Below are positions 8,712 to 21,534 of a stretch of 27,446 nucleotides of DNA, piece after piece. The first letter of the stretch is position 1. Each line of letters opens with the position of its first letter. The stretch spans positions 1 through 27,446 of the forward strand of contig JARRRI010000016.1 in the NCBI GenBank assembly GCA_037380845.1, given 5' to 3'. A program made the translations under genes and the position numbers. The notes under the pieces were generated by a model that was not told the DNA's origin, did not search any database, and saw only the letters and a program-made list of their open reading frames with translations. The stretch comes from Candidatus Sulfobium sp. Its GTDB lineage: Bacteria > Nitrospirota > Thermodesulfovibrionia > Thermodesulfovibrionales > UBA6898.

Positions 8712-8845
8712 CGTCTCACGATTCACGTTTCAAGGTCTTCACCAATTCACGGTCTTCGTACCTTTGTGGCTTTGTGTGAGGCAGATTCTTTATGGTCTTT
8801 ACCGTTTCACGATTCACGTTTCACGGTCTTTAACACGTTTCACGA
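8712..8845. repeat. TTCACG-based heptamer arrays / 28-bp direct repeat
   Basis: CGTCTCACGATTCACGTTTCAAGGTCTT (8712-8739) vs CGTTTCACGATTCACGTTTCACGGTCTT (8803-8830), 2 mismatches, plus extra units. Confidence 0.75.
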
Positions 8846-8882: not shown

Positions 8883-9185
8883 ATGTTAAAGAGCGCACTG
8901 AAACTTCTGTTGCTGTTTTGTATAACGGGGCTCCTTTTTTCGGCCTGTGACCGGAAGAAGGCGGAGGACTACAGCGGGACAGTCCTGAATATGCCCAAAA
9001 GGGCGCAGCATGCCGCCGACCAGGCCAACCTGGAGGCGCTGAACAGCAGTGTCCAGGCCTACCGGTCTGCTAACGGCAGGTATCCCGAAGACCTTAAGGA
9101 TGCCGCAGCCCTCATGGGCTCGTCCATCGACCTCGGAAAGTACGATTACGACCCGTCGACAGGCAGAGTGAGTTTGAGGAGATAG
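8883..9185 (+). CDS. Small lipoprotein, function unknown
   Basis: Hydrophobic signal with lipobox LFSA|C. The body ANLEALNSSVQAYRSANGRYPEDL resembles the pseudopilin/GspG-like helix-YP motif. Confidence 0.8.
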   Translation: MLKSALKLLLLFCITGLLFSACDRKKAEDYSGTVLNMPKRAQHAADQANLEALNSSVQAYRSANGRYPEDLKDAAALMGSSIDLGKYDYDPSTGRVSLRR

Positions 9186-9284: not shown

Positions 9285-9508
9285 CGTAATTCCCGAGGCA
9301 GTAGCCGGGAATCCATTCGCCTTGTGAGAACATGGATATCCCGCCCCTGGTCGCCTCCGGCACGCCAAAGGCGGCAGACTTCGCGGGGATGGCTAACAAG
9401 GCCATTTTCTTTTTCCATCGTGAGCGAGTGCTCATGTCGAGTCCCGCCCAGGCGGGAATCCGGAACAGGAAGAAACTGGATGCCCGACTGAGGACCCCGG
9501 GCATGACG
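9285..9508. repeat. Cluster of four palindromic REP-like arms (two inverted doublets)
   Basis: CGTAATTCCCG..CGGGAATCCA (9285-9315); TGGATATCCCGCCC..[insert]..CTTCGCGGGGATGGC (9333-9393); GTCGAGTCCCGCCCAGGCGGGAATCC (9436-9461); CTGGATGCCCG..CGGGCATGACG (9476-9508). Confidence 0.7.
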
Positions 9509-9673
9509 GAAAAGGAACTATGTGCAAACACTCATTGCGTTGTGCATAGAAACGAGAAGAATCAGGATATTCCAGGGGTCGAGGGAAAAAAGCCGAGCTA
9601 CAGGCCTATTTTTCCGGTCATTATTCACACTGTGCGTTGCGCCCCATGCGCTTTGCTTTAAGAGAGGATAGTC

Positions 9674-10249
9674 GTGAGGATATCCGCAGGGCTTTTGAAA
9701 GGAAGGAAGATCAGGGGCGGGAAATTATCTTCGAAGAAGAACAGGGAAGCGGGTTTCAGACCGACTTCATCGAAGGTCAGGGAGGCGATTTTTGATATCT
9801 TGAGAGACGACATCAGGGGCGCGTCGTTTCTGGACCTCTATGCGGGGAGCGGCACAGTGGGCTTCGAGGCGCTTTCGAGGGGTGCTGCAGAGTGCTGCTT
9901 TGTGGAACATGACCCCCGCCGCTTCAGGGAAATCATGTCTTCCGTCAAACGAATGGGTCTGGAAGACTCGGTGACATTGTTCAGGGAAGAGGCGTCTGAC
10001 TTTCTCAGGAGGGCACTTAAGTCGAAGATCACCTTCGGGATAATCTTCGCCGATCCTCCATATTCGTCGGGGGAGTTCGACAAGATATTCCCGTTGCTTG
10101 AAGGGGGGGAAGTCCTCCGGGAAGGCGGCTTACTGATGATAGAACATCCTTCAAAAAAAGTTTTCATGAACGCCGCCCCTTCGCTGAGATTCGTCAGGAA
10201 TTATAAATACGGAGACACAATGCTCACACTGTTCAGGAAGGAGCCATGA
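9674..10249 (+). CDS. rsmD: 16S rRNA m2G966 methyltransferase
   Basis: RPTSSKVREAIF, FLDLYAGSG.VGFEALSRGA, IFADPPY and YGDT motifs; GAGAGGA SD; canonical position before coaD. Confidence 0.95.
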   Translation: MRISAGLLKGRKIRGGKLSSKKNREAGFRPTSSKVREAIFDILRDDIRGASFLDLYAGSGTVGFEALSRGAAECCFVEHDPRRFREIMSSVKRMGLEDSVTLFREEASDFLRRALKSKITFGIIFADPPYSSGEFDKIFPLLEGGEVLREGGLLMIEHPSKKVFMNAAPSLRFVRNYKYGDTMLTLFRKEP

Positions 10250-10752
10250 AGAAAACTGTAGCCGTCTATCCCGGCACATTCGATCCCTTTACCAACGGTC
10301 ATCTTGACCTCATGGTAAGGAGCCTCAGGATCTTCGACAAGGTGATCGTGGCAATCGCCCCCAGCATGAAGAAGACCCCTCTCTTTACCGTTGAAGAACG
10401 CCTCGCCCTTACCAAAAAATGTACCAGGGACTATGAACGGGTACAGGTCGAGGTCTTCGACGGCCTCCTGGTTAAATACGTCGAGGCCAGGAAAGGCATT
10501 GCCATCATAAGAGGATTGCGGGCCGTCTCCGACTTCGAGTATGAACTGCAGATGGCCCTCATGAACAGGCGGCTCAGCCAGAAAATCGAGACCGTCTTCC
10601 TGATGCCCAACGAGGAATTTTCCTTTCTTACAGCCACGATAGTCAAAGAGATCGCCTCTTTGGGCGGCCCCGTCACAAAACTCGTACCCCCGCCCGTCGA
10701 AAGGGAACTGAAGAAGAAATTCAGGAAGACCGGTAAAGACCGCAGATCGTGA
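10246..10752 (+). CDS. coaD: Phosphopantetheine adenylyltransferase
   Basis: YPGTFDPFTNGHLD and IIRGLRAVSDFEYELQMALMNRRL; ATGA overlap with rsmD. Confidence 0.97.
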   Translation: MKKTVAVYPGTFDPFTNGHLDLMVRSLRIFDKVIVAIAPSMKKTPLFTVEERLALTKKCTRDYERVQVEVFDGLLVKYVEARKGIAIIRGLRAVSDFEYELQMALMNRRLSQKIETVFLMPNEEFSFLTATIVKEIASLGGPVTKLVPPPVERELKKKFRKTGKDRRS

Positions 10753-10787: not shown

Positions 10788-10833
10788 GGGAACCTGGGCA
10801 ATCCTCAGCTTACCAGGATTTCCCCCCTTTTTT
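10788..10833 (+). terminator. Possible intrinsic terminator after coaD
   Basis: Imperfect GGGAACCTGG/CCAGGATTTCCC stem followed by CCC and a T run. Confidence 0.3.
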
Positions 10834-10860
10834 GTCATTCCGGCGAAAGCCGGAATCCAG
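10834..10860 (+). repeat. REP-like hairpin, left arm of GIY-YIG cassette
   Basis: GTC ATTCCGGC GAAA GCCGGAAT CCAG: an 8-bp stem with a GAAA loop; exact reverse complement of 11161-11187. Confidence 0.95.
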
Positions 10861-11151
10861 TCAGGCGATCACCTGATAGAAATCCCGCCAATTCGGATTA
10901 GCACGCTCGATCAATTCGAGTTTCCACTTTCGCTTCCATTCTTTAATCTGCTTCTCCCGCTGAATGGCAGATTCCATGGTCTCATGCAATTCATACCAAA
11001 CCAGCTGGTGAACATCGTAGCGCTTTGTAAAGCCTTCTACCATATTATTTTTGTGCTCCCATATCCTCTTGATGAGATCTGAAGTCACACCAACGTAGAG
11101 AGTACCGTTTCTTTTGCTTGCCAGAATGTATACCGCAGGGTGTTTATTCAC
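10861..11151 (-). CDS. Small stand-alone GIY-YIG nuclease family protein (UPF0213-like)
   Basis: AVYILAS..GTLYVGVTSDL.KRIWEHK, GFTKRY, LVWYE, AIQREKQIKEWKRKWK.ELIE..NPNW; 96 aa; more AT-rich than its neighbours. Confidence 0.95.
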   Translation of the reverse strand: MNKHPAVYILASKRNGTLYVGVTSDLIKRIWEHKNNMVEGFTKRYDVHQLVWYELHETMESAIQREKQIKEWKRKWKLELIERANPNWRDFYQVIA

Positions 11152-11160
11152 TGTAGTTTC

Positions 11161-11187
11161 CTGGATTCCGGCTTTCGCCGGAATGAC
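11161..11187 (-). repeat. REP-like hairpin, right arm of GIY-YIG cassette
   Basis: CTGGATTCCGGCTTTCGCCGGAATGAC; perfect 27/27 inverted repeat of 10834-10860. Confidence 0.95.
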
Positions 11188-11224
11188 GCCGATTAATTAG
11201 AGTCTGGTATAAATTGCCTTTGGT

Positions 11225-11285
11225 CGTCATGTCCCGAAAGCTTTCGGGACATCCAGAAGGATTGAAAAACCTGGAATCTCGCCTT
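11225..11285. repeat. Variant REP doublet with truncated right arm
   Basis: CGTC ATGTCCCGAAAGCTTTCGGGACAT CCAG (perfect 24-bp palindrome 11229-11252), a spacer ending TGAAAAAC, then CTGGAATCTCGCC. Confidence 0.75.
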
Positions 11286-16830: not shown

Positions 16831-17703
16831 TTATTCCACCAGCCTCATGAGATAACCTCCATACCCGTTCTTTCGCAAAGGTTCGGCAAGCCTGCGCAGC
16901 TGCTCTTTATCGATATAGCCCAGGAGATAAGCGATCTCTTCGACACAGGCGATCTTCAAACCCTGTCTTTTCTCTATCGTGGCGATAAATTCGCCCGCCT
17001 CAAGGAGGCTCTCGTGGGTGCCGGTATCAAGCCACGCAGTACCCCTGCCCAGCAGTTCCACCCTCAGCCTGCCCTCCTGGAGATAGGTCTTGTTGACATC
17101 GGTTATTTCCAGTTCACCCCTCCGGGACGGCCTGACGTTCTTTGCAATTTCCACTACCCTGTTGTCATAAAAATACAGACCCGTCACCGCGTAATTCGAT
17201 TTCGGCTTCGCGGGCTTCTCCTCGATAGACAGCACCTTGCCTTCCCCGTCAAACTCCACCACACCATACCTTTCCGCATCGTTCACATAATAGCCGAAGA
17301 CCGTGCCCCCACCTTCTTCCTCAATCCCCTTCATCGTCTTCTTGAGAAGACCGGTCAGGCCGTGTCCGTAAAAGATATTGTCCCCAAGTATCAGGCATAC
17401 ATTGTCTCCCCCGATGAAATCCTCACCCAGGATAAAGGCCTGGGCCAGCCCTTCCGGACGGGGCTGCTCTTTATAAGTAAATTTCAACCCGAGTTTGGAA
17501 CCGTCGCCGAACATGTCCCTGAATTTCGGCAAGTCGTGCGGTGTGGAGATGATAAGTATTTCTCTGATGCCCGCCAGCATCAGAACGGACAGGGGATGAT
17601 ATATCATGGGTTTATCGTAAATCGGCAGCAACTGCTTGCATACAGAAATGGTGATGGGGTAAAGCCTGGTGCCGCTTCCCCCCGCGAGGATTATCCCTTT
17701 CAC
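16831..17703 (-). CDS. rfbA: Glucose-1-phosphate thymidylyltransferase, copy 1
   Basis: [41 protein letters not shown] and [10 protein letters not shown] motifs. Confidence 0.97.
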
Positions 17704-19229: not shown

Positions 19230-19302
19230 CGTCACCCCCGCGAAGGCGGGGGTCCACTTTAAACCCTGAAAAACGTGGATTCCCGCCTTCGCGGGAATGA
19301 CG
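19230..19302. repeat. Intact REP doublet (REPIN-like) of the CGTC-tagged family
   Basis: CGTCACCCCCGCGAAGGCGGGGGTCCA, a 19-nt spacer, then TGGATTCCCGCCTTCGCGGGAATGACG. Confidence 0.9.
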
Positions 19303-20661: not shown

Positions 20662-21534
20662 TTACCCCGCCAGCCTCATAAGATACTGTCCGTAGCCGTT
20701 CTTACTCAGCGGCTCGGCCAGTTTCAGCAATTGCTCCTTACCGATGTAGCCGGACAAATATGCGATTTCCTCAATGCATGCGATCTTCAGACCCTGCCGC
20801 CTTTCTATGGTAGCAATAAATTCCCCCGCCTCCAGAAGACTCTCATGGGTACCGGTATCCAGCCAGGCCGTACCCCTGCCCAGAGGTTTCACCCGCAGTC
20901 GCCCCTCCCGAAGGTATGTCATGTTTATATCCGTTATTTCCAGTTCGCCCCGCCAGGAAGGCTTGACATCCCTGGCGATGTCAGCAACCCTGTTGTCGTA
21001 AAAATAGAGACCTGTCACCGCGTAGTTTGATTTCGGCTTTTCAGGCTTCTCTTCGATAGAAAGGACCTTTCCTTCGGCGTCAAACTCGACCACACCATAC
21101 CTTTCCGGGTCGTGAACGTAGTATCCGAAAACAGTGGCGCCCCCTTTCTCCTCCACGTCACTGATGGTCCTTTTCAGAAGATCGGTCATCCCATGGCCGT
21201 AGAAAATATTGTCGCCCAGGATAAGACAGACATCGTCCTGGCCGATAAACTCCTGCCCCAGAATGAATGCCTGGGCCAGACCGTCCGGACTGGGCTGCTC
21301 CTTATAAGAAATCCTCAGACCCAATTGTGACCCGTCACCGAATATTTCCCCGAACTTCGGAAGGTCGTGGGGAGTTGAGATAACAAGTATTTCTCTGATA
21401 CCAGCCAGCATAAGGACTGACAGGGGGTGATAGATCATGGGTTTATCGTAAACCGGCAGCAGCTGTTTGCATACTGACCTGGTAATTGGATAAAGCCTCG
21501 TGCCGCTTCCCCCCGCCAGTATAATGCCCTTCAT
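20662..21534 (-). CDS. rfbA: Glucose-1-phosphate thymidylyltransferase, copy 2
   Basis: Same motifs as copy 1; AAGGAGG SD; about 50 of 290 residues differ from copy 1 by manual count. Confidence 0.97.

Follow-up and report, generated by a model that had tools for sequence, protein, structure and literature searches.

Palindromic repeats that carry a CGTC tag form one of the two large superfamilies of repetitive extragenic palindromic (REP) sequences. They were reported in 2013 without a dedicated enzyme, and have had a partner in the Ssn nucleases since 2025. We describe here a candidate locus of this system in Candidatus Sulfobium sp., an uncultured marsh bacterium. The window, meaning the whole stretch of DNA that was analyzed, is the 27,446-nt contig JARRRI010000016.1 (assembly GCA_037380845.1; genome of 3.18 Mb in 104 contigs). 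The element of interest is a unit of 354–356 bp, consisting of a hairpin arm, a GIY-YIG gene, a spacer and an inverted hairpin arm. Judged from its sequence, this unit is an ssn cassette with a probability of roughly 0.85, that is, an Ssn-family GIY-YIG gene located between inverted copies of its presumptive recognition hairpin. The hairpin itself is very probably a CGTC/TGTC-tagged REP, the type named NTS/SRM in the Ssn paper (see below).

The CGTC-tagged repeats are defined by a CGTC or TGTC tag, a stem of 8–9 bp beginning with AT, a loop of 4–5 nt and a CCA tail (Di Nocera, De Gregorio & Rocco 2013, PMC3733652; this paper and the Ssn paper are cited from the parts of their text available here). 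An excess of heterodimers is known for these repeats, and it has been proposed to protect against the cleavage of long perfect palindromes (PMC3733652). The repeats 'apparently lack a dedicated transposase', and GIY-YIG is not mentioned in the available part of that paper. The initial annotation of the window, according to which no established nuclease is known for CGTC-tagged palindromes, reflects this 2013 position, which is outdated now that Ssn has been paired with them (PMC11893778).

Ssn proteins are site-specific single-stranded-DNA endonucleases (Chenal et al. 2025, Nat Commun 16:2388, PMC11893778). According to this paper, the Neisseria repeat NTS is defined as CGTCATTCCCGCGMAVGCGGGAATCYRG, and ssnA is a 94-aa single-domain GIY-YIG gene (CDD cd10448), usually flanked by NTS/SRM-type hairpins across phyla. 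Four purified Ssn homologs bind the folded repeat in single-stranded DNA only. Cleavage takes place a few nucleotides 5′ of the hairpin and is restricted to one strand; duplex and cruciform DNA are not cut. The Y6A, Y17A and E64A mutants of SsnA keep binding and lose cutting. Cutting depends most on the GTC tag, and binding on the C that follows the stem. The Neisseria cut can be placed 4 nt 5′ of the tag, based on the 20-nt product and the sequence of the oligonucleotide. The modulation of transformation in Neisseria meningitidis by SsnA is the only in vivo role shown for the family. Membership is assigned in the paper either by tblastn against CAX49033.1 (E<1e-10 over >75% of the length) or by an rpsblast score >100 against cd10448. 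The likeness of Ssn loci to insertion sequences and to RAYT/REP systems is remarked on as well, and a mobilizing role is raised as a hypothesis (PMC11893778). The pairing of nuclease and hairpin, its biochemistry and the RAYT/REP comparison were thus already published in 2025 and are not new here. What is added is the bracketing of both small GIY-YIG genes of one genome, recurrence counts with controls, the limits of homology at the GTCA tags, and the heterotypic nature of the gene-less doublets.

The cassette and its predicted nuclease

The cassette contains the following features.

10833..10860, plus strand: left arm, a TGTC-tagged SRM/NTS-like hairpin with an 8-bp stem ATTCCGGC/GCCGGAAT, loop GAAA and tail CCAG (SRM motif match; fold −9 kcal/mol, z −4.8)
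10861..11151, minus strand: putative ssn-type gene for a 96-aa single-domain GIY-YIG protein, GTG start (open reading frame; Pfam PF01541, E 9e-18)
11152..11160, minus strand: 9-nt spacer from the start codon to the right arm (sequence read directly)
11161..11188, minus strand: right arm, the exact inverted copy of the left arm, with a CGTC tag on the bottom strand (sequence, SRM motif match, fold)

The two arms (10834–10860, plus; 11161–11187, minus) are 27 nt each and 100% complementary, with 300 nt between them. The arm 27-mer occurs twice in the window, compared to 0 occurrences in 100 dinucleotide shuffles. Each arm folds alone as single-stranded DNA into the 8-bp stem and GAAA loop at −9 kcal/mol, with z scores of −4.8 and −2.7. 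Both arms match the published degenerate SRM motif HGTCWYN(0-2)YYVSBRHN(0-5)WNVSBRGN(0-2)RNCYNB and lie 0 and 9 nt from the open reading frame. They read as T/CGTC, ATTCCGGC, GAAA, GCCGGAAT and CCAG, which is the make-up of a CGTC-tagged REP.

The TGA stop codon of the GIY-YIG gene directly touches the left arm. Perfect inverted 27-nt arms around a 291-bp GIY-YIG gene, with the stop abutting the left arm, had been described in the initial annotation, and this description is confirmed by the sequence, the open reading frame and the Pfam match. Its statements that the unit has no transposase and no target-site duplication, and that the gene is richer in AT than its flanks, are equally borne out. 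There is no transposase within the unit, and no direct repeat at its flanks, which read ...CCTTTTTT up to the left arm and GCCGATTA... after the right arm. The GC content is 44.7% for the GIY-YIG gene, compared to 52.7% for the upstream coaD, 60.0% for the downstream PDZ-domain gene, 53.2% for the window and 53.4% for the genome. On the coding strand, the arm tail and the spacer together read CCAGGAAACTACA ahead of the GTG, possibly a ribosome-binding site as judged by eye. In a scan for promoters and terminators, no promoter-like site was seen in a position to drive the gene, and terminator-like sites were absent altogether. There are no matches to Rfam families anywhere in the window.

The GIY-YIG domain spans residues 6–78 of the 96-aa protein, and no additional domain is present. 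All 18 aligned homologs share residues Y8, Y19, R29, E66 and N85. The AlphaFold2 model has a predicted local distance difference test (pLDDT) score of 93.9, and its best fold matches in the Protein Data Bank (PDB) are all GIY-YIG domains (1zg2, Slx1 and the N-terminal domain of UvrC), although these matches are weak (best E 1.2e-3). The PDB copy that was searched contains no Ssn structure, and a search of the ESM Atlas returned generic GIY-YIG clusters only.

The comparison with SsnA relies on the mutagenesis and cloning primers in Supplementary Data 8 of PMC11893778, which translate to the SsnA peptides MQPAVY, QPAV[Y6A]ILAS, RNGTL[Y17A]IG, TR[E64A]KQLKKWNR and NRAWKL. The counterparts in the window protein are PAVYILAS, RNGTLYVG and REKQIKEWKRKWKL. 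Residues Y8, Y19 and E66 therefore correspond to Y6, Y17 and E64 of SsnA, in matching context and with equal spacing. A scan for the Neisseria ssnA locus with a published primer gave a single match (L034), which contains neither a GIY-YIG gene nor an NTS and was dropped.

By analogy with the four SsnA-type enzymes, the window protein would bind the folded hairpin in single-stranded DNA only, and only on the strand reading 5′-YGTCATTCC...GGAATCCAG. Both the GTC tag and the C following the stem would be required. The cut would fall a few nucleotides 5′ of the tag, 4 nt in the case of Neisseria. With the 4-nt rule, the predicted cuts would lie slightly beyond the ends of the cassette, at about 10828/10829 (top strand) and 11192/11193 (bottom strand). 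The earlier proposal that this protein nicks the hairpins is upheld in part. The nuclease and the hairpins do belong together, as indicated by the recurrence of the bracket (see below) and by the biochemistry of the homologs; these homologs, however, cut single-stranded DNA 5′ of the hairpin, not duplex or cruciform DNA (PMC11893778).

Recurrence of the bracket and the hairpin population

There are three GIY-YIG genes in the genome, UvrC and two small ones, and both small ones are bracketed by inverted hairpins at distances of 5–27 nt. The second small gene (C51:86147-86413) encodes a protein 58% identical to that of the window. Its cassette (C51:86096-86560, locus L002/L031) has one hairpin after the stop codon and three tandem inverted hairpins before the start codon, with a 41-nt period, plus a degenerate fourth. 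The two Y1_Tnp (IS200/RAYT-type) genes of the genome (C22:85515-85838 and C35:26012-26338) are located 6–8 kb from the nearest hairpin. The flanks of the C35 gene show an inverted match of 18 points.

The bracket recurs outside this genome. Among 40 relatives, 17 homolog loci were found with 50–79% protein identity, and 15 of them reach the inverted-repeat score threshold of 14. At the remaining two, the tagged hairpins on either side are unlike each other. GIY-YIG genes of the relatives with less than 46% identity have no tagged arms. In IMG/VR and metagenome contigs, 145 loci were collected, 121 of them with 150 nt on both sides, and proteins with at least 45% identity were taken as Ssn-like. 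The bracket is present at 64 of 101 Ssn-like loci, compared to 0 of 20 distant GIY-YIG loci and 0 of 349 control windows displaced by 800 or 1100 nt. Such recurrence lies well above the level of chance. Of 65 loci found in IMG/VR contigs (viral as classed by IMG/VR), 43 (L065–L107) encode Ssn-like proteins (here with at least 46% identity), and 28 of the 37 of these that could be evaluated are bracketed.

The orientation of the hairpins could be classified for 52 cassettes in the viral and metagenome contigs. The tags point outward in 38 and inward in 14. The inward cassettes include L071–L076, L085, L089, L104, L106, L135 and L138, and the L135 protein is 79% identical to that of the window. 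Pairs of cassettes with the same stem 8-mer have a protein identity of 61.0%, compared to 56.7% for pairs with different stems, a difference reached in 0 of 1000 label shuffles; this co-variation is no proof of co-evolution, since linkage alone would give it.

There are variations in how the gene ends. At nine of the 17 homolog loci (L006, L008, L009, L010, L015, L016, L017, L030 and L033), the open reading frame runs through the hairpin arm and ends at a TGA complementary to the GTCA tag, with tails such as SGFPPSRE. The tag thus doubles as a stop codon. By contrast, the TGA comes just ahead of the arm in the window and in L005.

The genome is rich in hairpins of this kind. The SRM motif has 68 matches, compared to 18–36 in 10 dinucleotide shuffles, and there are 251 GTCAT-anchored hairpins, compared to 39–61 in ten such shuffles. 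Three stem families, ATTCC (95 copies), ATGCC (29) and ATACC (21), account for most of the excess. Close pairs of hairpins are mostly in the tags-outward (HH) arrangement (25 of 28). Three gene-less layouts in the window had been likened to the cassette.

19230..19302: gene-less tags-outward (HH) doublet of two unlike hairpins with stems ACCCCCGC and ATTCCCGC (arms 84% complementary; folds)
9436..9508: gene-less doublet of a degenerate hairpin without GTCAT tag and an inverted GTCATGCC-type hairpin, its arm at C16:9480 on the minus strand (hairpin scan, fold)
11225..11256, plus strand: solo CGTC-tagged hairpin of another stem type (ATGTCCCGAA.../...TTCGGGACAT), 37 nt to the right of the cassette (−10.3 kcal/mol, z −4.1)

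The first two are real doublets, although their arms are unlike. The third, proposed to extend over 11225–11285, has one complete hairpin only, and no convincing second arm was seen within it. The doublet arm at 19275–19302 fits the Neisseria NTS consensus with one mismatch. Two more widely spaced pairs (C11:37903/38308 and C10:10443/10820) were considered as cassettes and rejected. In one, a 'hairpin' lies inside an open reading frame with multiple CxxCH motifs (cytochrome-like, by eye), and the other contains no convincing gene.

None of the 25 tags-outward doublets has like arms, whereas both cassettes do. The doublets pair ATTCC with ATGCC or ATACC, or a long-loop with a short-loop form. 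Because the doublets are heterotypic and the cassettes homotypic, the doublets in this genome are not what remains of its cassettes after a plain deletion. The suggestion that gene-less doublets derive from cassettes finds no support in this genome, even though internal deletion does happen in the relative G037 (see below).

The hairpins are also abundant outside the genome. In one marsh metagenome run (X8), the summed contig depth is about 1,500–1,800 over the arms (window 10810–10860 and 11116–11217), whereas the gene and flanks reach about 38. That marsh community is thus very rich in near-identical hairpins.

Several observations weigh against the assignment of this locus to a working ssn system. 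Membership in the Ssn family is drawn from primer-encoded peptides, architecture and the flanking motif, and the nuclease activity of the window protein is a prediction. The cassette arms carry a compensated stem change, CCGGCG..GCCGG for CCCGCG..GCGGG. The exact arm sequence is found just twice in the genome, as the cassette's own arms, and the hairpin of this gene is therefore not the abundant type; the expectation that the flanking variant would be the most abundant repeat fails here. For the hairpin families GTCATGCC (29 copies) and GTCATACC (21 copies), the genome contains no cognate gene. The 14 inward cassettes do not fit a single model in which the tags are the ends of an element. Finally, the number of hairpins is only loosely related to the presence of the gene. 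Genomes with an Ssn-like gene (14) have a median of about 50 hairpins, and those without (27) a median of 10; the genomes are kin and mostly drafts. G001, G003 and G007 hold 102, 270 and 95 ATTCC-type hairpins, and no Ssn-like gene was found in them with this query. Absence from draft genomes is weak evidence, however, since assembly tends to leave the cassette as a separate contig of 353 nt.

Limits of the cassette and its possible spread

The cassette is flanked upstream by a gene for an RsmD-type methyltransferase and by coaD, and downstream by a convergent PDZ-domain gene.

10246..10752, plus strand: coaD-like gene (cytidylyltransferase-like), the upstream neighbor, outside the cassette

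Elsewhere in the window, a 300-nt direct repeat (16831–17130 and 20662–20961) shows 76% identity at a spacing of 3,831 nt. More matching stretches occur at equal spacing, and the whole looks like a duplicated gene block. Two 33-nt direct repeats (8712–8744 and 8803–8835; 88% identical, 91 nt apart) are located upstream of an open reading frame at 8883.

DNA homology to three other cassettes (L005, which is the locus of the nearest homolog, and the metagenome loci L131 and L134; 72–82% identity) ends at or near the tags. Its left edge is at 10814–10834 (10830–10834 for L131 and L134) and its right edge at 11187–11188. No flanking homology was found for L005 and L134, and L131 has one short, weak tblastx match at window 9478–9546. 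The genes neighboring L005 are unrelated to those of the window, and there are no flanking direct repeats at any of the three. The cassette thus behaves as a discrete unit across unrelated genomic contexts. The nearest homolog (79% identity) is in G040, a member of another taxonomic family, with almost the same unusual arms.

Two congeners, G002 and G003, keep the synteny of coaD and the PDZ-domain gene, and their orthologous coaD spacers have no nuclease gene. An empty site downstream of coaD was looked for in these relatives. The gene is absent there, but no clean empty site could be defined, since the spacers have diverged and hold other repeats. In G003, a solo hairpin in the same orientation is found at the position of the left arm in the window. 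The two spacers (L036 in G003, L037 in G002) contain GTGAATAGT-like runs, a shared block with TAGGTTCTA, and tagged hairpins. The spacer after coaD seems to be a repeat sink.

In four metagenome runs, no contig joins the flanks across the cassette. Apparent joints that skip 295–304 nt were rejected, as their sides are at most 30 nt and stem from a repeat elsewhere. Other metagenome contigs contain the arm pair of the cassette with 10–27 nt between the arms, though this evidence is weak, with matching sides of at most 30 nt.

The relative G037 (loci L215–L225) has one intact cassette and nine dispersed, decayed copies of a second lineage. The blastn pieces of these copies are mostly 74–96% identical to each other. 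At least four carry different internal deletions, which shows that internal deletion of cassettes does occur. Sequence common to several copies reaches at least 16 nt past the right tag, and a further module of about 120 nt is repeated at a distance of about 100 nt. The repeated unit in G037 may therefore be larger than tag to tag.

We favor a selfish partnership of nuclease and repeat, comparable to RAYT/REP, in which the cassette would spread or be exchanged as a unit. Mobilization of the cassette is a hypothesis. A literature search returned no paper showing Ssn-driven mobilization and none joining GIY-YIG with 'repetitive extragenic palindromic'. The present data contribute unit-like boundaries, different contexts and a multi-copy decaying lineage, without an insertion or excision event.

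How such a cassette might spread can be envisioned in more than one way. It could be an autonomous transposon with the GIY-YIG protein as its transposase and the gene-less doublets as non-autonomous derivatives. The hairpin–ssn–hairpin cassette would then be a mobile element of a new mechanistic class, with the 96-aa nuclease as the sole protein moving the cassette and, in trans, the CGTC-tagged REP dimers. We regard this as a tentative possibility, with the odds against it. The architecture is like that of an insertion sequence, as the Discussion of PMC11893778 also notes, and homology between cassettes ends at the tags in unrelated contexts. The distribution is patchy and includes broken copies: matches occur in 26 of 41 relatives, many as fragments or interrupted by stops. 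The G037 lineage decays by internal deletions toward gene-less forms, and the closely spaced arm pairs in the metagenomes point weakly in the same direction. Against this stand the lack of a target-site duplication, of a clean empty site and of a joint across the cassette, as well as the heterotypic arms of all 25 outward doublets and the inward tags of the 14 cassettes. Hairpins persist in relatives where no gene was found. Moreover, the cleavable hairpins are on opposite strands, so that the 'peel and paste' mechanism of IS200/IS605 would not be directly copyable.

It is unlikely that the gene is a domesticated host function, in which the nuclease restricts or modulates incoming or exposed hairpin-bearing single-stranded DNA and the flanking hairpins are relics or regulatory. 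The transformation phenotype of SsnA, noted above, would agree with such a role, as would the one or two gene copies per genome beside about 145 hairpins, which resemble single-copy RAYTs. However, the locus is not conserved, and the GC content of the gene is about 9 points below that of the genome. The nearest relative is in another taxonomic family, while the paralog in the same genome is only 58% identical, and pseudogenes are frequent in relatives. Taken together, these properties are more in keeping with a selfish gene that moves horizontally than with a fixed gene of the host.

Homing-like spread is quite unlikely. Here, Ssn would break DNA by hairpins in transient single-stranded regions, and recombination repair would copy the gene into pre-existing doublets. 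The hairpins would be targets and homology arms, not transposon ends. Homing by GIY-YIG endonucleases has established precedents. A hairpin is always present on each side of the gene, in either orientation (38 outward, 14 inward), no target duplication is found, and the solo hairpin of G003 occupies the place of the left arm. However, there is no direct evidence for homing, and the arms would need co-conversion, as the doublets are heterotypic and the cassettes homotypic. The 96-aa protein also has no DNA-binding extension, and it scores 21.6 bits for TIGR01453, far short of the cut-off of 56.

A coincidence, with an ordinary small gene in a repeat-rich spacer and the hairpins as unrelated terminators or insulators, has a negligible chance even though the coaD spacer collects repeats in two congeners too, being refuted by the controls with shifted windows (0 of 349) and homolog loci (64 of 101), and at odds with the bracketing of both small GIY-YIG genes and the lack of any terminator-like site.

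Comparison with known systems

If the unit does prove to be a mobile element, Ssn would be the missing mobilizing enzyme of the second great REP superfamily. The genome by itself changes nothing in current knowledge. It is a compact natural case, with two paralogous cassettes that have their own arms, three stem families (two without a cognate gene) and heterotypic doublets only, and is useful for the specificity between enzyme and hairpin and for the origin of the doublets.

The closest described system is SsnA with NTS/SRM. Both have a single-domain GIY-YIG protein of about 95 aa, in which the catalytic residues (Tyr, Tyr and Glu) agree in position and local sequence. In both, the gene is flanked on both sides by CGTC-tagged, motif-fitting hairpins, which are also scattered in the genome. 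The differences are the host, which is an uncultured marsh bacterium instead of Neisseria or Wolbachia, the compensated stem change in the arms, and the presence of two paralogous cassettes beside three hairpin stem families. The locus described here is known from its sequence alone.

The hairpins share with the CGTC-tagged REP superfamily, which includes Neisseria dRS3 and Rickettsia RPE-4/6, the CGTC/TGTC tag, an 8-bp stem starting with AT, a 4-nt loop and the CCA tail. The arrangement as mostly tags-outward (HH) dimers, largely heterodimers, is the same as well (PMC3733652, available part).

The REP/REPIN–RAYT systems (REPtrons) are alike on paper, with a low-copy nuclease gene flanked by a hairpin repeat that is also dispersed as inverted doublets. 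However, the enzyme here is a GIY-YIG protein and not an HUH/Y1 transposase, the tag is CGTC and not GTAG, and the Y1_Tnp genes of this genome are located away from the hairpins. The enzymes of IS200/IS605 recognize a folded hairpin in single-stranded DNA and cut beside it, as Ssn would here by analogy. They have a different catalytic fold, and they cut on one strand, whereas the cleavable hairpins of the cassette are on opposite strands.

The GIY-YIG homing endonucleases of the I-TevI type share the catalytic domain and the selfish-gene setting. In comparison, the window protein has no DNA-binding extension, and its gene is not in an intron but in the chromosomal spacer between coaD and the PDZ-domain gene. 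Compared to a classical insertion sequence or miniature inverted-repeat transposable element, the target-site duplication is absent, while the inverted ends are present.

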